A stretch of 63,518 nucleotides of DNA, filler included. It is 5 parts of 5 records of this genome, joined end to end, with 100 filler letters (N's around TTAATTAATTAA, not from the genome) between each part and the next. Parts side by side here need not be neighbours in the genome. Positions count along the whole stretch, not along the records: positions 54,800 to 63,518 come from SRR31156797_30054; 4 more parts are not named here. The stretch is one strand, 5' to 3'. Of this stretch, positions 3 to 63,518 are shown one piece after another. Under the pieces are notes generated by a model. That model saw nothing but the letters and a program-made list of their open reading frames with translations, searched no databases and was not told the DNA's origin. A program made the position numbers and the translations under genes. Within the stretch, counting starts at the first letter, position 1. The number at the start of each line of letters is the position of its first letter.

Positions 3-728
3 ACCCTTGGAGGAGTATCAACACCTCTTATCGAAAGGAACACCACTATCCCTACCAAGAAGAGCCAGGTCTTCTCAACAGCAGCTGACAATCAGCCATC
101 TGTAGAGATCCATGTACTTCAGGGTGAGAGGGGTGTTGCATCAGGCAACAAGTCTCTCGGTAGGTTCACACTTGACGGTATTCCACCGGCACCAAGAGGA
201 CTTCCACAGATCGAGGTCACATTCGATATCGATGCTAATGGTATCCTCCATGTGAATGCAAAGGACATGGGGACCGGTAAGGAACAGTCTATATCCATCC
301 AGAAGCCAGGTGGTCTTACTGATGATGAGATCGACCAGATGGTCAAGGATGCAGAGATGCACGCTGAAGAGGACAAGCAGCGCAAGGAAGAGGTTGAGGT
401 CAAGAATACAGCTGAGTCCCTTGTAAACGCTGCTGAAAAGACACTCAAGGAAGCAGATGAGATTGCAACTGATGAGCAGAGGTCAAAGATTGAGGCAGCA
501 ATAGAAGCTCTTAAGACTGCTCTTGAAGGTGACGACATCGAGGACATCAAGGCTAAGACTGAAGAACTCCAGACCGCAGTCTATGATGTATCTGCTGCAA
601 TGTACCAGAAAGCTCAGGAAGAGGCTGCAGCCGCAGCATCTGCCGAGGGTACTGAAACTTCCGCTGGTTCAGACGAAGATGAGACTATCGTGGATGCAGA
701 CTACGAAGTAGTCGATGAAGACAAATAA
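3..728 (+). CDS. dnaK: Hsp70 chaperone DnaK, C-terminal part (5' truncated by window edge)
   Basis: Frame from nt 3 reads [32 protein letters not shown]...[24 protein letters not shown], ends ..[12 protein letters not shown]; followed by dnaJ. Confidence 0.97.
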
Positions 729-829: not shown

Positions 830-1990
830 ATGTCCACGACACGCGATTATTACGAGATCTTAGGTTTATCCAAGGATGCCACAGAGTCCGAGCTAAAGAA
901 AGCTTACAGAAAGCTTGCAATGAAATATCACCCGGACAAGAACAAGGAAGATCACGCTGAAGAGAAGTTCAAGGAGATATCCGAGGCATATGCTGTACTT
1001 TCCGACGCTGAGAAGAGGGAACAGTATGACAGGTTCGGCCATGCAGGTATTGATGGTCGCTACAGCCAGGAGGACATCTTCAGAAATGCTGACTTCGGTG
1101 ATCTTGGAGATATACTCGGAGGTATATTCGGCGGTGGCTTTGGAGGTTTCGGAGGTTTCGGTGGTGGACAGAGAAGACAGGGTCCTATGAGAGGTTCTGA
1201 TCTTCGTTATGATCTTGGCATCACTCTTGAGCAGGCAGCAGATGGTTTTGAGACGACTCTTAATGTCCCAAGGGCTGAGAACTGTGAGTCCTGTGACGGT
1301 ACTGGTGCAAAGGCGGGTACAAGTCCAAAGACATGTCCTACCTGTCATGGTTCCGGTCAGGTAACACAGGCGCGCAATACTCCATTTGGGAGATTCATGT
1401 CAACAACTACCTGTAACGCCTGTCATGGGCGTGGTCAGACTATAGATACCCCATGCCCTGCATGTAAGGGTACAGGTAAGATGAAGAAGGTCCGCAAGAT
1501 CTCTGTCAAGGTACCAAAGGGTGCTGATAACGGTCTTCGTCTCAAGATAAGGGGTGAAGGTGAGGACGGAAGTCCGGGTGCACCATCCGGTGATCTCTAT
1601 GTTGTCATACATGTGGAGCCGCATGATAAGTTCCAGCGCATGGGTGACGATATCGTCTATGAGCACTCAATTTCCTTTGCCAGGGCTGCACTTGGCGGAG
1701 ATGAAATGGTACCGACACTTCATGGTAAGGTCAAGATGCAAATCAAACCCGGAACACAGACACATTCCATCCTGCGTTTAAAGGGTAAGGGTATGCCTCA
1801 TCTTCATGGACATGGACATGGTGATCAACTTGTGAAGATTATAGTAAGGACACCGACAAAGCTTAGCGGTGAGCAGAAAGAGCTTCTTCAAAAACTTCAG
1901 GGGCTTGAGCCAGGCCCTGATGTGAAGAATCCTAAAGGTGGCAAGGGTATCTTCGAAAAAGTAAAAGGCGCTTTTGAAACAGGGACGTAG
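830..1990 (+). CDS. dnaJ: Chaperone DnaJ
   Basis: J-domain with HPD, G/F-rich linker, four CxxCxGxG zinc-finger repeats. Confidence 0.97.
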
Positions 1991-53568: not shown

Positions 53569-54354
53569 TTGATGGAAGCGGATTTGAATGCAACTGCACA
53601 TTTGGGAAATGAGCTTCACCGGTTTTTGAGACGGAAGATCGAGGTGGAAGGCGTTTGGGATTACGAAGTGGCTGATATGCTCAATGTCAAGCAGGGTCAT
53701 ATCGGTGCGTTGAGACGCCGTTTGGGGATTGATCGGACAAAAGGTTTCTTTTGCCGTTTTGACCGGAAGTACGGTCCCGGCGCCGTGTCGCGGTTCAGAA
53801 AAATGATCGAGAATCCGGAAAAATCCCTGGCGGATGTGGGGGCCTATTTCGGTTTTTCAAGGGAGTATGCCCGGCAGGTGTACGGGAAGATCTACGGGTG
53901 TTCCTATGGGGAAAACCACGGGAGGATGAAAACCCTTGAAAAAAAGCGTCGCACGAAAACGAAACAGCCGGAAACCCTTGTGAAAGTTCGGAATAAGATG
54001 ATGTCCCTGGGGTTCCATCCGAAGATCGAAAATCGGGGGCGGGCTTCCAGGATTTTGGTTAACGGTTACAAGCTCGGCCTGAAATTCAGCAGAAACCCCA
54101 GAATGATTGGCGAAAAACAATATTTTAATATTAATCAGAAAAATTGCTTTAAAAAAGAGCACTGTGACTTTTTTATCTGTCTCCTGAAACGGGAATGCGA
54201 TGAAACCCATTTTATCATTCCGAGGACGGCCATGCCCAAATGCAGCATTGCCCTTTCTCCCCAGTTTGATAAGGCAAAAAGCAAGTATTCACAGTTCAAG
54301 GAGGCGTGGCATTTGCTGGAAAAAGGCGCCCGGACACAAGTCGGATCTTCATGA
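53569..54354 (+). CDS. Hypothetical HTH protein with nuclease-like C-terminal domain
   Basis: AAGGAG RBS; SLADVGAYFGFSREYARQ HTH; DFFICLL..., HFIIP, KY..FKEAWHLL. Confidence 0.6.
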   Translation: MMEADLNATAHLGNELHRFLRRKIEVEGVWDYEVADMLNVKQGHIGALRRRLGIDRTKGFFCRFDRKYGPGAVSRFRKMIENPEKSLADVGAYFGFSREYARQVYGKIYGCSYGENHGRMKTLEKKRRTKTKQPETLVKVRNKMMSLGFHPKIENRGRASRILVNGYKLGLKFSRNPRMIGEKQYFNINQKNCFKKEHCDFFICLLKRECDETHFIIPRTAMPKCSIALSPQFDKAKSKYSQFKEAWHLLEKGARTQVGSS

Positions 54355-54699
54355 AAAATTCGGAATCAGGAGGGACTAGAGATGAAGAGATATTCAGGGC
54401 AGGCCCCGTTCTCATGCTTTTGGTCGGCCAAAAGAAGGGCGGAATTCAGATCAAGAGGTTTTGGAATGATCAATATGGGTTCCAGGGTGAAAACCGAAAA
54501 CCCTGTTAGCAGTGAAATCGATCGAATTATTTTTGAAAGATTGATCCGTGATGAAAGCAAAGATTCCTGAAGAAAACTTTCACAACGCTTTGATTGATCA
54601 GATTAGACGTCTTGATGATATAAAAGCCGTCTCCCCGGAGGGATTCATATGAGCCGTAATTTTCAAGTACAATGCAAAAAAAGCAACGGGAACCTGCAT

Positions 54700-54799
54700 N
54701 NNNNNNNNNNNNNNNNNNNNNNNNNNNNNNNNNNNNNNNNNNNTTAATTAATTAANNNNNNNNNNNNNNNNNNNNNNNNNNNNNNNNNNNNNNNNNNNN
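54700..54799. other. Artificial contig linker
   Basis: N-run/TTAATTAATTAA/N-run. Confidence 0.98.
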
Positions 54800-54830
54800 A
54801 TCAGCCATCAGCCATGAGCCATCAGCCATA
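54800..54830. repeat. Heptamer tandem repeat (ATCAGCC-like) x4 at contig start
   Basis: ATCAGCC ATCAGCC ATGAGCC ATCAGCC. Confidence 0.85.
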
Positions 54831-56372
54831 TCACATAACCCCATACAGCTGTTTTCTTTCCAAACAGGTTTCTAATCCCTCCTTATGGTTTCCACTTTGC
54901 ATATGGGCATCTTCATCAAGACCCAAGACAATTCTTTTCTCGTTCATAACGTTTCTTGCCGCGGACAGCAACTCGTAAAAACCAGACGAATCGGCTCTCC
55001 GCATGGCCAGCAGGGCAATGTCAATGACCGGGTCATCGGTCAGACCGGATTCGTCCGACATGACCTTACGAAGCCTGCCGGGTATCCCATCAATAAAAAC
55101 ATCCGGTACGACCCCACGCCCCTGGATACGATTGCCCTCAGGCGTGTAGTACCTGGCGATGGTAATCTTTATTCCATACCCATCTCCGATTCCTTCAACC
55201 GCCTGTATGGAGCCTTTCCCGAAAGATGTATTTCCCAAAACAACGGCCCTATTGTTTTCCTGCAGGGCGCTTGCCACAATCTCAGCCGCACTGGTGCTCC
55301 CTTCATTGATCAGTACCACGACCGGATACGAACGTCTGACGGCATTGGGGCCGGCCCTAAATTCCCGGGTGTTGCGCCTTATGCGACCGTTGACGGAGAC
55401 GATATTCCCCTTTTCGAGAAAAAGGTCGGATACCCGAATGGCCTGGCTCAGCAATCCACCGGGATTATCGCGCAAATCAAGAATCAAACCTCGCAAAGGC
55501 CTGCTTTCCTCATCCAGTCCGGCCAGCGCCGTTTCAAGATCCGCCGCCGTATTTTCATCGAAGCTGCCGATCCACGCGTACCCGAAGCCGGAGTGCAACT
55601 TCCGCGCATGAACACTCTTGTTGGGAATGACTTCACGGACCATTTCGTAATCAATGGGTTTTTCGGCATTTTTTCGAGAAACGGTTAGGGTCACCTTTTC
55701 CCCGTCATGGCCACGCGCCTTCCTGACAGCATCCCTGACATTCTTAACTTTGACGCCATTCACACGATGAATTCGGTCTCCGGCCACAATGCCGACTCCA
55801 TGGGCCGGACTCCCTTTGATGGAAAACACGGTGGTTACGAAGCCATCTTTCATTGTAACGACAATCCCGATGCCCGTGAATTTTCCTTGTGAATCGGTTT
55901 TTACCTTTTGCAGATCATCAGGCGAGAGCAGGGCGCATTGAGGATCCAAATGTGCAAGCATGCCTTTAATGGCGGAATCAACAAAATCATGGGATGAAAA
56001 CCCCGGAAAACTCCGTGAAGCACGGCTGAAAAGAGATCTGAAATTTGATTTAACATCTTCCATATCATGGCTGCTTTTGAGATTGAAACCCAATAGGTCT
56101 TTTCCACTCAAAGAGCCGTCGGCTTCAATAAGATCTCTTGAACCAAGACCCGCCTGAATACCATCAATGGACCCGGCAATGAGTTTCTCAGCCGGTATGG
56201 GGTCCACATATTCTTTAAAAATAATTTCAGCAGCCCTGTCGAAGCGATCCAGGTTATGGTTTGTTTCAAAGTTTACGCGTGTTTCAACCGTTTGACAGCT
56301 GAAAACCGACAGAACAAGCAAAACAATCAGAGGCATACGGGGCCAGGCTTTCCTTATGATTTGAAATTCCAT
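54831..56372 (-). CDS. S41 C-terminal processing protease with PDZ domain (lipoprotein-like N-terminus)
   Basis: GIGI, GSPA, LILDLRDNPGG, STSAAEI, SFGKGSIQ, ARYYTP.G..IQGRGVVPD. Confidence 0.93.
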   Translation of the reverse strand: MEFQIIRKAWPRMPLIVLLVLSVFSCQTVETRVNFETNHNLDRFDRAAEIIFKEYVDPIPAEKLIAGSIDGIQAGLGSRDLIEADGSLSGKDLLGFNLKSSHDMEDVKSNFRSLFSRASRSFPGFSSHDFVDSAIKGMLAHLDPQCALLSPDDLQKVKTDSQGKFTGIGIVVTMKDGFVTTVFSIKGSPAHGVGIVAGDRIHRVNGVKVKNVRDAVRKARGHDGEKVTLTVSRKNAEKPIDYEMVREVIPNKSVHARKLHSGFGYAWIGSFDENTAADLETALAGLDEESRPLRGLILDLRDNPGGLLSQAIRVSDLFLEKGNIVSVNGRIRRNTREFRAGPNAVRRSYPVVVLINEGSTSAAEIVASALQENNRAVVLGNTSFGKGSIQAVEGIGDGYGIKITIARYYTPEGNRIQGRGVVPDVFIDGIPGRLRKVMSDESGLTDDPVIDIALLAMRRADSSGFYELLSAARNVMNEKRIVLGLDEDAHMQSGNHKEGLETCLERKQLYGVM

Positions 56373-56396
56373 GGGTGATCCGGTGAGGAACCACCC

Positions 56397-56768
56397 ATGA
56401 ACAACTCATTCTTGAAGCAATTCTCACAGAATATCAAGTTCAATTTTTTTTGTTTCGATCGGGTCATCATTCGGGGCTACATCCTGCCCCTGTTTTTTCC
56501 AGCAGGCATCGTAAGGTTTCTCAGGGCTGTCGGTTTCAAAGGGTTGTCAAATGGCGTTATGCGAATTCTGAGCGATCAACTGAATGCGCACATTCAAAAG
56601 GTAGCTCGAAAGCATGATATCCCCATACACTGGTGGCCCTACGAAGGGGGCGGCACTGACAGTGCAAAATCCAAGTTTGTGGAACAAAAATACGCAGGCA
56701 GCTCACTTCAAAATCCGGAAAACCCTATGACAGAATCTATGACTGCAAAAAAGCCGTCTCTGAGGTGA
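56397..56768 (+). pseudogene. N-terminal fragment of a probable transposase-like protein
   Basis: CFDRVIIRGY motif recalled from the start of much longer multi-copy hypothetical proteins; reading drifts after KYAG; family not verified. Confidence 0.45.
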
Positions 56769-57008
56769 ACTAAATCACACATTCACTATCCTGCGCCGAA
56801 TACTTCCCCACCGTATCCCACATCCATCATGCGCCTTCGCCAACGCCACCAACTCCTCAATCCCCGCCATCAACCACCGCCGATACCCCTCCTGATCTCC
56901 ATACCCATTCCACAAATGATTATTCCGCGGCACCATGATCTTCTCATGCGCCGTCTCCACCACCCCTTCATCCTAATCATCCCGCTGTTCTGTCCCTTCC
57001 CTTGACCC

Positions 57009-57037
57009 TTGACAGATGAAACCCCAACGGTTACAAT
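57009..57037 (+). promoter_or_regulatory. Sigma70 promoter with overlapping operator palindrome for higBA
   Basis: TTGACA-17 nt-TACAAT, 6 nt before ATG 57044; TGAAACC-N5-GGTTACA inverted repeat in the spacer. Confidence 0.8.
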
Positions 57038-57043
57038 CAAACC

Positions 57044-57207
57044 ATGATAAAGACCTTTGTTCACAAGGGCTTGGAGGCTTTTTTCTTTGAAGGTACAAAG
57101 GCAATAGAAAAGGCCATTGGGCGGTAAAGGTTTCAGGGAGCTGGCGTATAACTTTCAGATTTCGTGAGGGTGCTGCCTTCGCTGTCGATTACGAAGACTA
57201 CCATTAA
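57044..57207 (+). pseudogene. higB: HigB (RelE-family) toxin with internal deletion and frameshift
   Basis: MIKTFVHKGLEAFF..GT joined out of frame to KGNRKGHWAVKVSGSWRITFRF...VDYEDYH*; only 164 nt; not in the ORF track. Confidence 0.85.
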
Positions 57208-57217
57208 GGAGAAAGCA

Positions 57218-57541
57218 ATGAATAAAAGAAAGAGGCCCCCGACCCATCCGGGAGGAATATTGAAGCGGCTATACCTGGCCCCAATGGAAATAACGGTATC
57301 AGAGTTATCGAAAAGAATAGGTGTCTCCAGGAAAACGGTATCCAAACTCGTAAACGAAAGGGGTTCCTTTACACCGGATATGGCGCTCAGATTGTCTCGT
57401 GCTTTCAACACAACACCGGATTTGTGGCTCAACTTGCAGAAAAACTATGACCTATGGCAGACTGGACGGAAGTCCATGGACTGGCAGAGGATCGCACCGT
57501 TTCCTGCGCGAGAAATGGCGAACTCACTTCCTCCTGGATAG
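57218..57541 (+). CDS. higA: HigA antitoxin (Xre HTH)
   Basis: AAGGAG RBS; PPTHPGGIL, GVSRKTVS, TPDMALRLS, WLNLQ..YDL. Confidence 0.92.
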   Translation: MNKRKRPPTHPGGILKRLYLAPMEITVSELSKRIGVSRKTVSKLVNERGSFTPDMALRLSRAFNTTPDLWLNLQKNYDLWQTGRKSMDWQRIAPFPAREMANSLPPG

Positions 57542-57597
57542 CTCCTGCGGATTTATCCGCCTCTGGAGGATTTTCGCAGATTATTCGAACCCGCAAA

Positions 57598-57651
57598 CAC
57601 GGAGACCACAGAGTTTTATATTTTCTTCCCAGTGTCCTCTGCGTCTCCGTG
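57598..57651. repeat. Intergenic hairpin repeat with CACAGAG/CTCTGCG-type arms
   Basis: CACGGAGACCACAGAG...CTCTGCGTCTCCGTG. Confidence 0.75.
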
Positions 57652-57719
57652 GTAAATCAACCAACCCTGCTTTCCTCAATGCTCTCGGTAAAAAAGGGGG
57701 GACATATACCGAATAACCA

Positions 57720-57755
57720 CAATAAGTAAAGCCCTAATACAATAAGCAAAGCCCC
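57720..57755 (+). repeat. Two truncated copies of the cassette-boundary motif
   Basis: CAATAAGTAAAGCC (57720) and CAATAAGCAAAGCC (57740). Confidence 0.7.
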
Positions 57756-57789
57756 ATATGACCTTGACGGATACTGTAATATACTAGAG

Positions 57790-57903
57790 GAAGTAACGGC
57801 GATTGGCATTCAGCCCGGTACCCATGTGTTGAGAATCATCACGGCAAGAGACATGAATAAGACGCAAAGAGACATGTACAACAGGAGAGGAGGCAAACCA
57901 TGA
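57790..57903 (+). pseudogene. BrnT-family toxin C-terminal remnant
   Basis: ...VLRIITARDMNKTQRDMY...* with ATGA overlap onto the antitoxin start; N-terminal half missing; left boundary approximate. Confidence 0.7.
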
Positions 57904-58182
57904 AAGATTCGAAAAAGCTGTCGGATGTCCCTCCCATGAACGATCACGAATTGGAAGCCTTCTGGGATAAAAACCAGCCGGAAGACTATGAAGGCTGGGA
58001 AGAAGGAACGCTGACATTCACGCGGCCGCCAAAGAAGTTAATCCAATTGCGAATGGAACCCAGGGATATCAGAATCATTGACCGCGAATCCAAACGCTCA
58101 GGCATCGACAGATGCTCAACTGGTACGTTCGTGGGTAAAAGAGAAAATCAGCCATATAGAAGGTAAGGAAAGTCATGGGTAG
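57900..58182 (+). pseudogene. BrnA/CopG-type antitoxin with 1-nt frameshift
   Basis: EAFWD, KKLIQLRM...GIDR; dropping one base near 58113 restores AQLVRSWVKEKI (RHH helix). Confidence 0.72.
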
Positions 58183-58267
58183 TCATTCATTCCCCACAGG
58201 TACCAAATTCGTTCAACTGTTCTTCTGAGAGCGCCAGTCCAGCATCTTTCGTCTCTTCTCTGCCTAC

Positions 58268-58315
58268 CTCTGCCTGCCCTGTGAAACCCGGGTCTTTGTT
58301 TCACCGGGGCGCGAG
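58268..58315. repeat. Small hairpin element inserted in a CTCTGCGCGAG repeat arm
   Basis: CTCTGC[CTGCCCTGTGAAA...TTTCACCGGGGC]GCGAG; inverted counterpart at 63013-63074. Confidence 0.75.
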
Positions 58316-58395
58316 CCTAAATATGGAGAAAAGGCGTGCTTTGGGTTGCATAGTGGTGCTATGTGGCCGAAGGCGTAACGCTGCAGGCGGGAAAG

Positions 58396-58422
58396 CAACA
58401 AGTAAAGCCTGACCCCGTATTT
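58396..58422 (+). repeat. 27-bp boundary repeat, copy A
   Basis: CAACAAGTAAAGCCTGACCCCGTATTT; 26/27 identical to 60287-60313. Confidence 0.9.
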
Positions 58423-58452
58423 TCTTCTATTGGATACCAAGGAGGTGACAAA

Positions 58453-58557
58453 ATGACATACTTTGGAATTGCCTTGATAATTCTGGGAGCTTTTGCTTTA
58501 ACAGGCATTATTTATGTTCAGCTTGACCGAAAACACCTCAAAACGAAGGAGAACTGA
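58453..58557 (+). CDS. 34-aa single-TM small protein
   Basis: AAGGAGGTG RBS; MTYFGIALIILGAFALTGIIYVQLDRKHLKTKEN. Confidence 0.65.
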   Translation: MTYFGIALIILGAFALTGIIYVQLDRKHLKTKEN

Positions 58558-58626
58558 CTTCCGACCGCAGACTTCAACCTTCCCGTCCAGGCCCCCATTC
58601 GCCCTTTTTGCACATCAATTACCACA

Positions 58627-58682
58627 AGACACAGAGAACACAGAGTTTTTTATTTCTTTTTTCTCTGTGACCTCTGTGTCTC
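58627..58682. repeat. Intergenic hairpin repeat with 9-nt periodic arms
   Basis: AGACACAGAGAACACAGAG...CTCTGTGACCTCTGTGTCT. Confidence 0.8.
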
Positions 58683-58933
58683 TGATGAGTACCGGGGTGA
58701 AACGGTGGTTTTAGCAATCGGCCAAGTATCTGAAATACGCGTTCCGGTCCATCCCTAATGTCAAGAGCATGCTCACGCGGCTCATCAATCGGAATCATCG
58801 TCGCTGACATGGCAAAAATAATAGAGATCACAACTATTTATCGCTTTTCCGATTTGATAAAAATTCTCGTAAGTTCAAACTGATTTCACGGAATTGATTG
58901 TTGTGACAGGGGGCGCCTGGGAGTAATACGAGC

Positions 58934-60211
58934 CTACAGCCCCTCCCGCAAAGCTGGCCTGGCCCTTTCACCCCCATGCACCAGCTTAATTTGCCCAGGC
59001 TTTTCCGGCATACCATTTACCCACTCCAGCAATCCGTTCCGATCGGCATGGGCCGAGTAGCCGGGCATCAAATGAATGCCGGCCCTGATTCGAAGCTTTT
59101 CTCCCTTCATCACCACATATCCGTCCGGCTTCCGATACCAGGCCAGGATATCCCGCCCCGGCGTTCCCCGTACCTGATATCCCACAAAAAGCATTTCATT
59201 TTCAGGCTTCTCAATCCCTTCAATAATATGATTCACGATCCTTCCACCGGTACACATGCCGCTGCCCGCCAGAATGACCATGGGGCCGCCCGTTCGCAGC
59301 AAATCCATATGATCTGAATGCCGCGGCACCGCATAAAGGCCCTCAAAGTCAATGGGATGGTCACCCCGCGACAAATGCCCGCGGGCTTCCCGGTCCCAGT
59401 AAGCGGAAAGATTCGCATAAACATCCGTAATCTCAATACCTAAGGGAGAATCCAGGAACACCGGAACTCGGAATTCGCTTTCGCTAAACAGCCGGTCCAT
59501 CTCATAAAGCAGTTCCTGAGTCCGGCCCAGAGCAAAGGCCGGAATCAAAACCCTGCCCTGATCCGCCAGTGCTTTTTTCAGCACCCGCCCCAAACGGTGC
59601 CCGCGACCCATCCGGTCCCCATGCACCCGATTCCCATAGGTGGATTCCATGACCAGAATGTCGCACCCTTCCGGCACATCCGGATCACACAAAAGGGGTG
59701 TATGTTTTGCCCCCAGGTCCCCTGAAAACACCACCCGCCCATTACCTGGAATATCGAACTGAATCCAGCAGGATCCCAGAATATGACCCGCCCGGCCCAG
59801 CGTGAATTGAAGTCCCCGGTCCAGATCAAAAGGCGCACCATATTCAAATCCCCAGGAAATCCGGTCAATGACTTCCAAAAGCCCCATGAACTCCCGTTCC
59901 GTAAAGTGTGAAAAAGCTGACGCATCCTTCAGCATCGGTTCCAGAAGCGCCTTGGTAGCATGAGTGGTCAGAATCTCGCCCCTGAAACCCTTTTGTACCA
60001 GCTCCGGCACCCGGCCGATATGATCCATATGAGCATGGGTCAAAAACAGAAAATCAACGTTTCCCGGATCAATCGGCCAGGCCTCCATGGGCAGCAACCT
60101 GTCATTCCCCTGCGCCAGCCCACAGTCCACCAGAATATTCAACTCCCTGGCCTGAAGCAGGTGACAGGACCCCGTCACCGTTGTTTCACCGCCCAGATGA
60201 ACCATCTTCAT
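58934..60211 (-). CDS. MBL-fold beta-CASP hydrolase (putative RNase)
   Basis: VTGSCH, DCG, THAHMDHIG, AGHILGS, FSGDLG, ESTYG, PAFALGRTQE, GSGMCTGGRI, SAHAD, LVHG. Confidence 0.92.
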   Translation of the reverse strand: MKMVHLGGETTVTGSCHLLQARELNILVDCGLAQGNDRLLPMEAWPIDPGNVDFLFLTHAHMDHIGRVPELVQKGFRGEILTTHATKALLEPMLKDASAFSHFTEREFMGLLEVIDRISWGFEYGAPFDLDRGLQFTLGRAGHILGSCWIQFDIPGNGRVVFSGDLGAKHTPLLCDPDVPEGCDILVMESTYGNRVHGDRMGRGHRLGRVLKKALADQGRVLIPAFALGRTQELLYEMDRLFSESEFRVPVFLDSPLGIEITDVYANLSAYWDREARGHLSRGDHPIDFEGLYAVPRHSDHMDLLRTGGPMVILAGSGMCTGGRIVNHIIEGIEKPENEMLFVGYQVRGTPGRDILAWYRKPDGYVVMKGEKLRIRAGIHLMPGYSAHADRNGLLEWVNGMPEKPGQIKLVHGGERARPALREGL

Positions 60212-60286
60212 ATCACGCGCCCCCAAAAATGACCCAAAACGGAAATCTTTAATCCACCACCTTCATGCCCTTCATGCTCAAAACGA

Positions 60287-60313
60287 CAACAAGCAAAGCC
60301 TGACCCCGTATTT
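60287..60313 (+). repeat. 27-bp boundary repeat, copy B
   Basis: CAACAAGCAAAGCCTGACCCCGTATTT, followed by TTGACC...TAACAT promoter-like sequence. Confidence 0.9.
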
Positions 60314-60384
60314 CTCTTGACCATGGCAGAAAAACGATTAACATAGTTTAACAATTTATTTGTTTAATTGTTTAAGGAGAAGAT

Positions 60385-60663
60385 ATGCCCGCAATCATGA
60401 AAATAAGTCCTCAGGGGCAGATTCGTATACCCAAAAAGATCATGATGACGCTTGGGATCGGGAAAGGCGATTATGTTGAAGTGGATATTGTAGAAAGGCA
60501 GATCGTCCTGAAACCGAGAAAACTCATTGATCCCTCCCAAGGCTGGTACTGGTCCCGGGAATGGCAGAAAATGGAAGCCGAGGTCGATGGGGAAATGGAT
60601 AAGGACCAACTCTCACCCACATTCGAATCCGCTGAAAACGGACTGAAATGGCTGAAGAAGTAA
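60385..60663 (+). CDS. AbrB/MazE/SpoVT-family antitoxin
   Basis: AAGGAG RBS; KISPQGQIRIPKKI..LGI.KGDYV, IVLKP, QGWYWSREWQ. Confidence 0.88.
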   Translation: MPAIMKISPQGQIRIPKKIMMTLGIGKGDYVEVDIVERQIVLKPRKLIDPSQGWYWSREWQKMEAEVDGEMDKDQLSPTFESAENGLKWLKK

Positions 60664-60932
60664 AGTCCTACCGGTTCAGCAGGCGATTTAAGAAAGGCTA
60701 TCAAAGGCTGCCCAAAGAGATTCAAGAGGCCTTTGATCAGAAGCTGCCGGTTTTTCTGAGAGATATGTCGCGCCCTTCCCTTCGGGTAAAGCCCTTGCAG
60801 GGAACTAAAGGTCGCTGGGAAGGATCCATCACCATGAAATACCGGTTTACTTTCGAATTCTCTCAAGACACCCTGATCTTCAGGGCCAAAGGAGGAGCAG
60901 ATGGAACAGATCAGAGTAAATTTAACCCTTGA
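60648..60932 (+). pseudogene. RelE/ParE-superfamily toxin, C-terminus apparently replaced
   Basis: FSRRFKKGYQRLP, PSLRVK.LQG, WEGSITMKYRFTF; after IFRA it runs into the next gene's RBS instead of the usual (I/V)G.HD ending. Confidence 0.65.
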
Positions 60933-61143
60933 ACGGGAGACATGGGAAAGGTTTGGCCAACTGGTACCCAATCGCCAAAAAAGCCGGGCTGTCAATGAAT
61001 TATTGAAGCGCGAAGTCCTAAAAATGATACGGGAAAGTGAAGAAAAGGCGTTGCGTCTGGCATTTGCCGAGGCTGCAACCGACAAGGCACGGGAGACCGC
61101 CATCAACGACTGGAAACCATTAGACACAGAGGGATGGAGTTGA
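60901..61143 (+). CDS. RHH-type antitoxin partner of MazF/PemK
   Basis: AAGGAGG RBS; RVNLTL...VPNRQKSRAVNELL, acidic DW..LD.EGW tail. Confidence 0.78.
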   Translation: MEQIRVNLTLERETWERFGQLVPNRQKSRAVNELLKREVLKMIRESEEKALRLAFAEAATDKARETAINDWKPLDTEGWS

Positions 61144-61144
61144 A

Positions 61145-61491
61145 ATGAATCAGGGAGACATCTATCTTGTGAATCTGGACCCCACTGTACAAACCGAAAT
61201 CGGCAAGACCAGGCCGGAACTCATCATTTCGATAAATGCCATGAATCACAGCTCGCCCAGGTTGATTGTTGCTCCCATCACCTCCTCAACCGGCAAAGTA
61301 TATCCCTTTGAAATATTCATTCTCCGTGGTACAGGCGGGCTCGACAGGGATTCTAAGGTCATGCTCGACCAACTGAGAAGCCTAAAAAAAAACCGGTGAA
61401 AAAATTAGGCACACTTAACAATCAAACCCTGTCAAAGGCCTGCGCCATAGCCCGTCGGCTTATCTGGGTGGAACCTAAAAGATGCAATTAA
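61145..61491 (+). pseudogene. mazF: MazF/PemK toxin split by a frameshift at an A9 tract
   Basis: GDIYLVNLDP...EIGKTRP, VAPITS, DQLRS; -1 frame continues VKKLGTL...ARRLI to TAA 61491. Confidence 0.85.
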
Positions 61492-61509
61492 CGGAAGGAG
61501 GATTAACCC

Positions 61510-61632
61510 ATGGTCGGATTCGTGATCATCATGGCTACCGTAGCCTCAATGGCCATCGGCGCGGCCGTTTATTTTAAATATCCCCTTTCACCTTTGAGCT
61601 TCCTTCCATTAACGACAATAAGGAAAGCCTGA
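61510..61632 (+). CDS. 40-aa single-TM small protein whose stop lies in the boundary repeat
   Basis: AAGGAGG RBS; MVGFVIIMATVASMAIGAAVYFKY...RKA*. Confidence 0.5.
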   Translation: MVGFVIIMATVASMAIGAAVYFKYPLSPLSFLPLTTIRKA

Positions 61633-61641
61633 CCCTCCATT
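61611..61641 (+). repeat. Boundary repeat, copy C
   Basis: AACGACAATAAGGAAAGCCTGACCCTCCATT versus AACGACAACAAGCAAAGCCTGACCCCGTATT at copy B. Confidence 0.8.
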
Positions 61642-61645
61642 CCGT

Positions 61646-62995
61646 TTATCTTTTTATGGGCCAAAGCCCCGACTCCACCAGCGCCATCAACACCACAAAA
61701 TAGACCTGGTTCGCCGGAATCTGAAAATTAAAATCAAAAAACCCGTGAAAGGCCAGTGAACAAATCCCCGCCAGCGCCCCCACACTCACCAGCAGCCGAA
61801 ACCGCCCCACATCAAACCCCACCTTCCGTATGCGCCGAACCGCCCGAACAATAAAAAAGAAGAGCCCGAACACCAGGACCACCGCGCCTGCCCACCCCGT
61901 CTCAATGAGCAGCTGCAGGTAATCGTTGTGGGCATAATACGAACGTCGCCCCTCTCCCCGGTCCACATACACCAGCTCCACGACGGGATAATTTCCCAGG
62001 CCCACACCTGCGGGATAATCCTTCGCCATTTCCCATGAAGGCCCCCAGGTCTGCAGTCGGCCACCGTCAACACTTTCCATATCCATAAACCGATCAAGGA
62101 TCTTGTCAAACCCCACACTGGTTCCATATACGGTCACCAGCCCCACAAGTGCCAGAATCGCAAGCCGAAACCCCCAACGAAACCGTCCACTGGCCATGCG
62201 AAGCACACCCAAAAATGCGGCCATTCCCAGAAAACATCCCAGAACACCGGCCCGCGACCGTGAAAACAAAAGCGCCAGCACCATCAGCACCACCAGAATA
62301 AACCCCACCAGCTGCCGGCCCACATGCTCTTCAGCCATAAAGGCTTTAATTCCTTGCCCTTCTTCCCACTTTCCCTGGGCAAAAGTGACGCCCAACGCCA
62401 AGGGCCATACCATTTCCATAAATCCGGCAAAATGGTTTCGGTTGATGTACGTCCCCCGGGCACAACCTGCAGCACTGGCTGATTGCTCCGCCCACCAGAC
62501 CCCCAGATCCGGAAACAGGACCTGCAACAAGCCGTAAGCCATCTCAAAAATACCCAGCCCCATGAGCACCATCACCATTCTTTTGAAGGTTTTCCGATCC
62601 CGTCCAAAACTCACACACATCCAGAAAAAAAGTCCCAGACAAATCACAAATCCCCACCGGACAACAGCACGATATGCCGAATAGACCAAGGCATCCCCAG
62701 TCATGTCAATCCCAAGAATCTTACCCGCATCCTCCAGGAACTGCGCCCGGACCGGACTGATCCCTTCCAACAACCCCTGCGGCAATGGCACCACCTGCAA
62801 CAGCGACAACAACAGAAAAAAACCTAAAATCCCGGAAACCCACGGCCCCGGCCGCCACGTAAGCCCGCCCTGCCACATGCAAACCCCAAACCCCAGAATC
62901 ATCAGCAGCGCATAAAACGACATAATCCAGGGTTGCGCCGCACCAAACAGAAGCGCCACCGTCCCGATAACCAAATAAACAATTCCTTTGACCAT
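61646..62995 (-). CDS. O-antigen ligase / Wzy_C family membrane protein
   Basis: GTYINRNHFAG, SRSRAG, GVGLGNY, AHNDYLQLLIETG, HGFFDFNFQIPAN. Confidence 0.9.
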   Translation of the reverse strand: MVKGIVYLVIGTVALLFGAAQPWIMSFYALLMILGFGVCMWQGGLTWRPGPWVSGILGFFLLLSLLQVVPLPQGLLEGISPVRAQFLEDAGKILGIDMTGDALVYSAYRAVVRWGFVICLGLFFWMCVSFGRDRKTFKRMVMVLMGLGIFEMAYGLLQVLFPDLGVWWAEQSASAAGCARGTYINRNHFAGFMEMVWPLALGVTFAQGKWEEGQGIKAFMAEEHVGRQLVGFILVVLMVLALLFSRSRAGVLGCFLGMAAFLGVLRMASGRFRWGFRLAILALVGLVTVYGTSVGFDKILDRFMDMESVDGGRLQTWGPSWEMAKDYPAGVGLGNYPVVELVYVDRGEGRRSYYAHNDYLQLLIETGWAGAVVLVFGLFFFIVRAVRRIRKVGFDVGRFRLLVSVGALAGICSLAFHGFFDFNFQIPANQVYFVVLMALVESGLWPIKR

Positions 62996-63012
62996 TTGTC
63001 ACCCTTATAAAA

Positions 63013-63127
63013 CTCGCGCCCCAGTGAAATCCGCTTCGCTCATCACTGACGTGAATTTCACGGGGCAAGCAGAGACGCTAAGAAAAAAAGAATTCATTTT
63101 CTCTGCGCCTTTGCGACTCTGCGCGAG
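63013..63127. repeat. Composite hairpin: CGCAGAG-type repeat with nested GTGAAAT...ATTTCAC element
   Basis: CTCGCGC[CCCAGTGAAAT...ATTTCACGGGGCAAGC]AGAGACGCTAAG ... CTTTGCGACTCTGCGCGAG. Confidence 0.8.
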
Positions 63128-63516
63128 AATAACAGTCCCCAAACAACGGTTCCGCACAACACCCCACACAAATTCGCAAAAATATCCACCGGATTAAAGG
63201 TCCGGTAAGGCAAATAGTATTGCAAAAACTCAATCCCCACCCCCAAAACCGGCACAGAAACCAGCAACATGAACTTCTTCAGGCGGGACATCCCCCTGCC
63301 GGCACCGATGGCTAAAAGTATCATCACCCCAAAACCCGCAAAATGAAACACCTTATCCAGGCCAACGGACGCCACCACGACGGTTTCCGCTTTGGACCCG
63401 TGCGGCACAATCCCTGCGATAACCACTCCCACAACAGAAAGTGCCATCAAACGCCTTGACCATATAACGGTTTTATGACTCGCCAAATACATGAATAACC
63501 TAAAACCTCGCGCCAA
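63094..63516 (-). CDS. VanZ-family membrane protein (start uncertain)
   Basis: DKVFHFAGF, IEFLQYYLPYRTF...DIFAN..G. Confidence 0.85.
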   Translation of the reverse strand: MARGFRLFMYLASHKTVIWSRRLMALSVVGVVIAGIVPHGSKAETVVVASVGLDKVFHFAGFGVMILLAIGAGRGMSRLKKFMLLVSVPVLGVGIEFLQYYLPYRTFNPVDIFANLCGVLCGTVVWGLLFSRRVAKAQRK

Positions 63517-63518
63517 GA

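Follow-up and report, generated by a model that had tools for sequence, protein, structure and literature searches.

What is the short repeat that stands at the seams of a string of small toxin-antitoxin (TA) modules lying among S41 peptidase, beta-CASP metallo-beta-lactamase (MBL) and Wzy ligase genes, and has it had a part in bringing these modules together? The question is raised by the last part of a 63,518-nt stretch of DNA (hereafter the window, meaning the whole stretch that was analyzed), in which the contig carrying the repeat region begins near position 54800 and for which an original prediction, made from the letters alone, had proposed a repeat-delimited array of gene cassettes. 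Sequence comparison identifies the motif as the outer ~30 nt of the ~31-bp terminal inverted repeat (TIR) of a TIRtron, whose repeats begin GGGGTCAGGC, the right-hand one extending over the final codons and stop codon of the gene for its Y1 HUH tyrosine transposase (TIRYT, TIR-associated tyrosine transposase). The family is common in sulfate-reducing Desulfobacteraceae and is of a known, little-studied kind, and the solitary copies in the window mark seams between small TA modules. The explanation that we favor, at somewhat better than even confidence, combines this identity with an enzyme acting in trans that would build the patchwork of TA modules at the repeat ends.

To locate the repeat, both strands of the 63518-nt window were scanned with CAAYAAGNAAAGCC, allowing at most one mismatch, and compared with 100 shuffled sequences. 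Five matches were found, all on the plus strand (57720, 57740, 58396, 60287 and 61616), exactly as had been predicted; the shuffled expectation was 0.26, and five or more matches were reached in 0 of the 100 shuffles. The near-identical pair noted earlier also holds (58396-58422 and 60287-60313, 26/27 nt, 96% identity), while the TGACCC tail ascribed to the motif follows three of the five copies and is lacking at 57720 and 57740. The CTGTCCC sequence near 56990, taken earlier for a looser variant, is not a copy of the motif and lies ~15 nt upstream of a promoter at 57009-57037. A sixth copy at 56333-56357, on the minus strand and thus inverted relative to the other five, had been overlooked, and the conserved unit is longer than was supposed, reading AATAAC[GC]ACAATAAGGAAAGCCTGACCCC across relatives; copies 4 and 5 carry an extra 5′ extension of short repeated words, giving units of ~60256-60307 and 61582-61635. 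The window looks like joined contigs, possibly from different organisms, and because its DNA is heterogeneous, the clustering of the copies within it tells little. An alternative reading of the motif as a sigma-54 promoter was considered by eye and dropped.

Outside the window, a scan with CAAYAAGNAAAGCCTGRCCC in one genome per species located the repeat at at least 134 loci, mostly in metagenome-assembled genomes (MAGs) labelled Desulfobacteraceae, Desulfobacula, Desulfotignum or Desulfobacterium. Among the matches listed, 26 of 151 lay inside long open reading frames (ORFs) of unrelated bacteria and were removed before all counts as chance coding matches (for example, a CoA-transferase-like NRNKKSLTL); one match on a viral contig, a chance coding match of the VEANKESLAP kind, was likewise rejected. 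Across 158 distinct contexts among the matches listed, likeness ends directly after CCCC. The complete chromosome G001 contains the exact 17-mer 41 times (18 on the plus and 23 on the minus strand, in 23 places; none for the reversed control), and a cluster of five copies lies ~115 nt upstream of a 346-aa ORF with the Pfam domains Y1_Tnp and Bac_DnaA_C. A tblastn search with this protein found homologues by the motif at loci L024, L006 and L049/L050, together with a fragment at L070, and in four other genomes the motif flanks Y1 genes in inverted orientation. At L024, inverted copies at 282-301 (minus) and 1284-1303 (plus) bracket an ORF at 347-1300 (317 aa); the ends of this gene form 31-bp perfect inverted repeats, and its last codons, ...ITTIRKA-TGA, are the motif itself. 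The same arrangement recurs at L006, at L049/L050, where the gene is truncated, and at L214, a complete unit with a variant repeat.

The encoded proteins match Pfam Y1_Tnp with E values of 7e-16 (L132), 3.5e-15 (L024), 7.7e-16 (L006) and 4e-17 (L214), and Bac_DnaA_C with 1.8e-7 (L132), 2.7e-4 (L024) and 7.8e-6 (L006). Their best NCBIfam match is REP_Tyr_transpos (72 and 68 bits, E 3.5e-20 and 1e-18, below the 80-bit cut-off), with transpos_IS200 far below it (19-22 bits, E 1.5e-3 and 1.1e-4), and HIH and RYIHLNP motifs are readable in the translation. In a PDB sequence search with the enzyme, DnaA domain IV alone was matched (E 0.0094), and no solved Y1 relative was found. The earlier guess that an IS200-like or RAYT enzyme might be involved was therefore right in kind, since the motif flanks Y1 RAYT-like genes in relatives and co-occurs with them across a family of genomes (odds ratio 10 in 161 genomes).

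Y1 genes flanked by TIRs have been described as TIRtrons and their enzymes as TIRYT (Di Nocera, De Gregorio & Rocco 2013, PMC3733652); according to that work, TIRYT TIRs share GGGGWSAS, may overlap the 3′ end of the gene, and form families of single, dimeric and grouped repeats. Quentin et al. 2018 (PMC6006769) also give the GGGGWSAS consensus and place most TIRYTs in TnpA_REP subclass 2.1, of which group 2.1.2 carries a Bac_DnaA_C-like C-terminus. The elements described here agree with these accounts: a gene for a Y1 HUH protein of ~320 aa, whose C-terminus bears a DnaA_C-like helix-turn-helix (HTH), is flanked by TIRs with the outer end GGGGTCAG (the reverse complement of ...CTGACCCC), the right TIR lies over the 3′ end of the gene, and single, dimeric and grouped copies are moderately abundant. 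GGGGWSAS fits window copies 3 and 4 and nearly all copies in relatives, and the 9-nt sub-terminal repeats (CAATAAC[CG]A / CAATAAGGA) by our reading agree at 7 of 9 positions with the DnaA-box consensus given in PMC6006769. What differs is the arrangement in the window, as same-orientation arrays of solo TIRs between TA modules go unmentioned in the available text of PMC3733652 and PMC6006769, whose main text and supplements, to the same extent, name no Desulfobacteraceae case. Within the searchable literature, the papers listed for the term TIRYT were these two works and no TIRYT mechanism was found, and the motif strings themselves matched, among the matches listed, apparently unrelated primers or constructs.

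Other repeat families resemble the element only in part. The REP/REPIN-RAYT systems (Nunvar 2010; Bertels & Rainey 2011) likewise have a related Y1 enzyme encoded between inverted repeats, with repeat copies scattered over intergenic DNA, and the doublets here form a long hairpin comparable to a REPIN; in some E. coli strains a TA operon stands in place of a REPtron locus, according to PMC6006769. However, repetitive extragenic palindromes (REPs) are 20-40-nt imperfect palindromes with a GTAG (or CGTC) tag, whereas a single copy here is not a palindrome and has neither tag at either end, copy numbers are modest (0-75), and the enzyme is longer and has an HTH. Bacterial miniature inverted-repeat transposable elements share with the doublets a structure of two TIRs and a short spacer without coding capacity, but the cognate enzyme here is a Y1 HUH and not a DDE transposase, and no target-site duplication was seen by eye. 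IS200/IS605 elements end in sub-terminal hairpins in one orientation, without TIRs, and their TnpA comprises ~130-150 aa without an HTH. With these elements and their gene-less derivatives, the palindrome-associated transposable elements, the present family shares Y1 HUH chemistry, a fixed short sequence adjoining the element, and the lack of an obvious target duplication at doublets (by eye); it differs from them in its enzymes of 317-346 aa with an HTH and in its ends, which are 31-bp perfect inverted repeats.

The distribution of the repeat was examined in 161 genomes of the family of G001, using the exact 17-mer for the motif and E<=1e-50 for an enzyme homologue. The motif occurs in 40 of these genomes (0-75 copies each; two matches in total for the reversed control) and the homologue in 33, some of which have two or three. 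Both are present in 21 genomes, the motif only in 19, the enzyme only in 12, and neither in 109, which corresponds to a Fisher odds ratio of 10 (p 7.5e-8, a statistic that ignores phylogeny). The matches listed for loci L001-L077 divide into 44 doublet members, 7 tandem members, 41 non-coding solos and 17 coding-like matches. The 22 tight palindromic doublets at these loci, a form absent from the window, comprise two TIRs around a 6-50-nt spacer with no coding capacity, often perfectly inverted with the CCCC ends outward; a doublet at L130 has a 29-bp stem (-34.4 kcal/mol, z -15.3). Doublets are placed between ordinary genes, with gyrB, transketolase, S16, L28 and relA among the neighbors, and no direct repeat flanks the ~10 that were inspected by eye. 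Solos and doublets differ in their surroundings: 15 of 41 solos but 0 of 44 doublet members are found in TA loci (p 3.5e-6; sites not independent, among the matches listed). As for the enrichment next to TA modules that the original prediction had proposed to check, in relatives ORFs of TA families make up 12 of 118 at <=300 nt from a copy, compared with 3 of 133 at >=1 kb in the same loci (p 0.014, loci listed).

Two further patterns were observed in the repeats of relatives. One MAG (L007, L020, L035, L038-L042, L046, L053, L063, L076 and others) contains the motif within a ~110-nt unit that is near-identical in more than 20 places, many of them at contig ends. Tandem duplications comprising the last 5-20 nt of the repeat and the next 4-8 nt of flank occur at L132-L151 (G001), L014, L036, L086, L095, L142, L207 and L215, the copies often being 5′-shortened, and L133 has three units of the repeat plus AAATAC. 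The frequency of such short duplications of the terminus and 4-8 nt of flank is a hint of repeated events there.

Uniformly oriented arrays of solo copies are found in the window (5/5) and at L029 (5/5), L215 (6/6) and L070 (3/3). The L029 array lies among AbiE, AbrB/RelE-like, WapI-like and HigAB-like genes, and that of L215 (genome G054) lies 3′ of a Wzz/Wzy operon and between HicAB, PemK, Phd-ParE and RHH-ParE pairs, with several of its copies followed by a TTGACA...TATAAT-like promoter; solo copies at TA-array seams beside polysaccharide genes are seen at L029, L215 and also L024. Neighboring sites in G001 do not share a strand, and no replichore strand bias is evident there by eye. Within the window, the positions assigned to three copies at module boundaries were confirmed: the 58396 copy lies 36 nt before the start of the small transmembrane (TM) gene, the outer end of copy 4 (60307) is followed by a promoter-like site (TTGACC/TAACAT, 60317-60344) of the AbrB/RelE pair, and the outer end of copy 5 is 10 nt from the stop of the O-antigen ligase gene on the opposite strand.

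The seams were compared with other sequencing runs (X2, X3 and X5, at 85% likeness), stretches without cover there not being counted as evidence; the whole stretch was found in one run, X1, which is its likely source. Contigs of X3 (marine sediment) and X5 (hydrothermal vent) contain 60887-61469 at ~96% joined directly to 60282-60307, with the word-repeat extension also present before the motif, so that the junction 60307/60887 falls on the last C of the motif and 579 nt with AbrB and the truncated RelE (60308..60886) are absent. In relatives relE continues ...FRTIGTHDILN, and because the window sequence diverges at 60886-60889, its relE is cut at this seam. The module 60887..61581 is present at ~96% identity in three other runs with an identical left end. 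In an X2 contig, 60887-61581 is bordered left and right by different sequence, and the likeness stops exactly where the 54-nt unit (61582-61635) starts; another X2 contig has the small TM-gene module (58428-58620) joined to the start of such a repeat unit.

A comparable arrangement exists in G054 (L214), where the stop of the beta-CASP MBL orthologue abuts a left TIR and the first ~12 codons of a TIRYT gene, followed by a Phd-ParE module and then a complete TIRtron. The ~97-nt left end (TIR, leader and ~12 codons) is therefore duplicated, with two differences between its copies, and brackets the Phd-ParE module (L214 4822-6640, G054:C93), which ends 8 nt before the GGGG of a TIR. TIRYT genes lie within 1-3 kb of the MBL orthologue in both L214 (G054:C93) and L217 (G116:C13; ~3 kb), which suggests that the element has long resided there. 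A Wzy_C gene adjoins the orthologue in G024 and, on the basis of Pfam, a VanZ gene adjoins it in G054, which fits an origin by insertion for the 1.4-kb segment of TA genes that separates Wzy from MBL in the window. The closest MBL identities are 63% among the 161 family genomes and 61-63% among 30 metagenome loci, and tblastn at 1e-5 gave no S41 or VanZ match in 8 MBL loci.

The genes around the copies were labelled by a Pfam search of 15 local ORFs, and the features of the region are summarized in Table 1. Most of the earlier labels were supported: HigA (HTH_3, 2.2e-10), AbrB/MazE (5.4e-10), the beta-CASP MBL (1.6e-32), the ligase (Wzy_C, 2e-20) and VanZ (2e-10), to which PemK (2.3e-22) is added. 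The higB remnant (E 0.085) and the RelE/ParE-like gene (E 0.075) gave weak matches, and the names brnT and brnA found no support, with no Pfam family at E<=1 for either ORF. The strands are as had been described, with the TA genes on plus and MBL, ligase and VanZ on minus. The promoter at 57009-57037, shared by higA and the higB remnants, is sigma-70-like (11/12, TTGACA-17-TACAAT), and PemK/MazF is frameshifted in the window, which lacks four bases (GGAC) that X2, X3 and X5 contigs have after 61383.

Table 1. Repeat copies, genes and other features of the repeat region, in window coordinates (RBS, ribosome-binding site; RHH, ribbon-helix-helix)
Feature	Position	Strand	Remarks
S41 (Ctp-type) peptidase gene	54831..56372	-	Left-hand resident neighbor
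TIR copy 6	56333..56357	-	TGA changed to TGG; outer end toward the S41 peptidase gene
Decayed higB, two remnants	57044-57124, 57127-57207	+	Within 57044..57541
HigA-type HTH antitoxin gene, intact	57218-57541	+	Shares promoter 57009-57037 with the higB remnants
Hairpin from another repeat family, unrelated to the TIR (ACAGAG-type words)	57598..57651	+	-11.6 kcal/mol, z -4.5; 3′ of higA
TIR copy 1	57712..57733	+	AATAACCACAATAAGTAAAGCC; without the outer TGACCCC end
TIR copy 2	57740..57757	+	Partial tandem repeat of copy 1, 20-nt period; outer end shortened (AAAGCC-CCCA)
Remnant ORF and 88-aa ORF	57781..58166	+	Earlier label brnT-brnA unconfirmed
TIR copy 3	58396..58416	+	Intact outer end ...GCCTGACCCC; small TM gene start 36 nt downstream
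Small hydrophobic (TM) ORF, 34 aa	58453..58557	+	Strong RBS AAGGAGGTG; ~91% conserved in a contig of run X2
Second copy of the ACAGAG/ACGGAG-word hairpin repeat	58625..58684	+	-15.7 kcal/mol, z -5.3; 3′ of the small TM gene
Beta-CASP metallo-beta-lactamase-fold RNase-like gene	58934..60226	-	Conserved resident gene
TIR copy 4	60256..60307	+	5′ word-repeat extension CCTTCATGC x2; outer end = 60307
AbrB/MazE antitoxin gene and 3′-truncated RelE/ParE-like gene	60385-60663; from 60648	+	Segment 60308..60886
RHH gene; frameshifted PemK/MazF; small TM ORF start	60901-61143; 61145-61399; from 61510	+	Module 60887..61581
TIR copy 5	61582..61635	+	54-nt unit: CCCCTTTCACCTTTGA... extension and TIR; aligns to L028/L029 units
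Wzy_C O-antigen ligase/polymerase-family gene	61646..62995	-	Right-hand resident neighbor

Copy 6 coincides with the start of the S41 ORF or immediately precedes it, and is in frame within the longest version of that ORF (IIRKAW). In that version, 56333-56372 on the minus strand reads MEFQIIRKAWPRMPLIV..., and if the upstream ATG of the S41 gene is used, the inverted copy would provide the charged start of a signal peptide. The DNA before copy 6 shows a faint nucleotide likeness to the last codons of TIRYT genes, which is not significant. A TIRYT gene remnant between 56358 and 57720 was also considered and rejected, the best tblastn match of four TIRYT proteins (E 0.055) falling on the HTH of HigA. 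The core of the second repeat family (ACAGAG/ACGGAG) was found at high depth in two other metagenomes compared. A 123-aa ORF at 56397-56768 on the plus strand corresponds to the first, N-terminal fifth of the proteins of a widespread family (538 aa) that has no Pfam or NCBIfam match; its members lie mostly on ~2-kb contigs, one of them on 47 contigs. This family may represent an uncatalogued insertion-sequence gene, which in the window would be truncated near 56693. Elsewhere in the window there are blocks with archaeal-type CofC, CofH, GGR and DUF22 genes (5-13 kb), a Vibrio-like block at 15-33 kb (DUF413, DUF3081, MalM, LamB and the type VI secretion genes IcmF, VasJ and VasI), and a block at 36-43 kb with 60-65% GC.

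The favored explanation builds on four points that the sequences show: what the repeat is, its association with the enzyme gene in relatives, the uniformly oriented arrays at TA seams in several genomes, and the one seam that falls on the last base of the repeat. From these we infer an enzyme-driven mechanism. The repeats also spread through genomes without the gene, as closely spaced palindromic doublets, as small tandem clusters and as single copies, and the window has the third form, with six partly decayed copies at the seams of mostly decayed small TA modules, a patchwork wedged between resident S41 peptidase, beta-CASP MBL and Wzy ligase genes. An enzyme supplied in trans would bind the 9-nt sub-terminal repeats through its HTH and then cut a single strand of the DNA at the GGGG/CCCC terminus. 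Through breaks and strand transfers there, with ordinary recombination between copies as an aid, segments could be gained, lost or swapped precisely at repeat ends, so that TA modules pile up. In a stronger form, which we consider unlikely, solo TIRs and a trans-acting TIRYT would constitute an integron-like accretion platform run by an HUH enzyme, joining DNA exactly at the GGGG/CCCC terminus, with each event leaving or regenerating a repeat and building same-orientation arrays of TA and other small genes beside surface-polysaccharide loci in several Desulfobacteraceae genera. The cassette idea of the original prediction is a minority reading: the TA-seam arrays by polysaccharide genes and the exact 60307/60887 junction agree with it, but support for it is no more than partial, since outside the window the neighbors of a copy are mostly ordinary genes (~90%), half of the copies being doublets and the relatives of the modules mostly lacking the motif.

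Several observations weigh against the enzyme-driven explanation. The window contains no enzyme gene (tblastn, best E 0.055), as had been noted from its letters, and 19 of the 40 motif-bearing genomes lack an enzyme homologue, including the richest, G160 (75 exact copies), which MAG incompleteness may explain. Known Y1 enzymes recognize hairpins as substrates, and single solo units of the window fold no better than shuffled sequences (z -1.2 to +0.9), that is, without a hairpin. The seam evidence comes from metagenome contigs with short sides of 21-26 nt at 85% likeness; a crossover inside a shared repeat would look identical to a cut at the repeat end, so that these data do not distinguish the enzyme from ordinary recombination as the maker of the junction. 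The co-occurrence and TA counts are uncorrected for phylogeny, and several sites may share one locus. Of the ORFs adjoining a copy, 106 of 118 among the matches listed carry no TA family. The repeat is also not integral to the modules, because TA-module relatives mostly lack it: relatives of the AbrB/RelE module occur in 9 of 161 genomes, and among the four aligned, the promoter is preceded by the motif in L207 and by a trace of it (GGGGTCTGACCCC) in L203, but by neither in L204 and L206; of 11 further loci, 1 has a strict or loose motif beside it, and the HigA-module relatives in nine genomes show no motif beyond one loose 9-mer. Much of this would be expected if the repeat were a passive bystander, a TIRtron derivative that survives in dispensable, spacer-rich DNA while ordinary homologous or illegitimate recombination shuffles the modules, the 30-55-nt repeats sometimes serving as homology. 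This is a serious alternative, though we hold it to be rather doubtful. The predominance of non-TA neighbors, the rarity of the motif beside module relatives and the crossover that would yield the 60307/60887 pattern all agree with it, as does the presence of a second, unrelated repeat family at module ends; moreover, at 61582 the 54-nt unit stands in place of the 3′ portion of a small ORF, which in X2 runs on with another sequence, and it is the repeat that seems to have been inserted there. However, four uniform arrays (5/5, 5/5, 6/6 and 3/3) would not be expected from independent random insertions, and neighboring sites in G001 alternate in strand; one breakpoint lies inside relE, without a repeat on the window side, and yet coincides with the last base of the repeat elsewhere; and short duplications across the terminus and 4-8 nt of flank are frequent.

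The remaining alternatives assign the repeat a function of another kind. As a protein-binding or RNA element (an operator, UP-like element or insulator), it would control the downstream operons and be kept by selection before TA promoters, and copies often point the same way as the gene and precede a sigma-70-like promoter by 9-60 nt or an RBS by 10-30 nt (window copies at 58396 and 60287; L207; L215). Such a regulatory role is nevertheless improbable, given that the motif is absent from 121 of the 161 family genomes and varies from 0 to 75 copies, that one sequence serves as the two ends of a transposase gene and also builds doublets with a perfect 29-bp stem between convergent genes, that copies also face gene 3′ ends (L029 and window copy 5), and that an Rfam scan of 54000-63518 gave no match at E<=1. 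An integron-like array, or one of another site-specific recombinase with attC-type or Xer/dif-type sites, is suggested by the layout of same-orientation repeats between small, often promoter-poor, TA-rich modules, which resembles that of integron arrays and clusters of attC sites lacking integrases, where same-orientation repeats separate compact cassettes, many of them TA pairs. We regard it as the least probable of all: the repeat belongs to a transposase gene and flanks Y1 genes, relatives of the cassettes mostly lack it, and no Phage_integrase match was found in the 15 local ORFs or in 48 further window ORFs of >=90 aa (the contig runs beyond the window), in agreement with the prediction that no integrase is present. 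A single copy is not an imperfect palindrome, and attC sites and the Xer layout were dropped after inspection by eye and folding, which gave no R″/R′ (RYYYAAC/GTTRRRY) cores, no hairpin in the units and no 11-6-11 arrangement.

TIRYT enzymes are numerous in genomes and, within the searchable literature, are without known activity or role. The family described here supplies defined substrates, a 31-bp end with 9-nt sub-terminal repeats resembling DnaA boxes, as well as naturally formed products that call for an explanation: doublets, tandem clusters whose flanks are duplicated, and solos at the seams of TA modules. Even if the terminus is not a joining point, its recognition is still useful as annotation, as the repeats account for breaks between contigs and for spurious small ORFs in MAGs of Desulfobacteraceae (e.g., the tail of ORF 61510-61632). 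If the terminus is indeed the joining point, it would represent a second route, unrelated to integrons, by which small defense and addiction modules are stacked in flexible loci.

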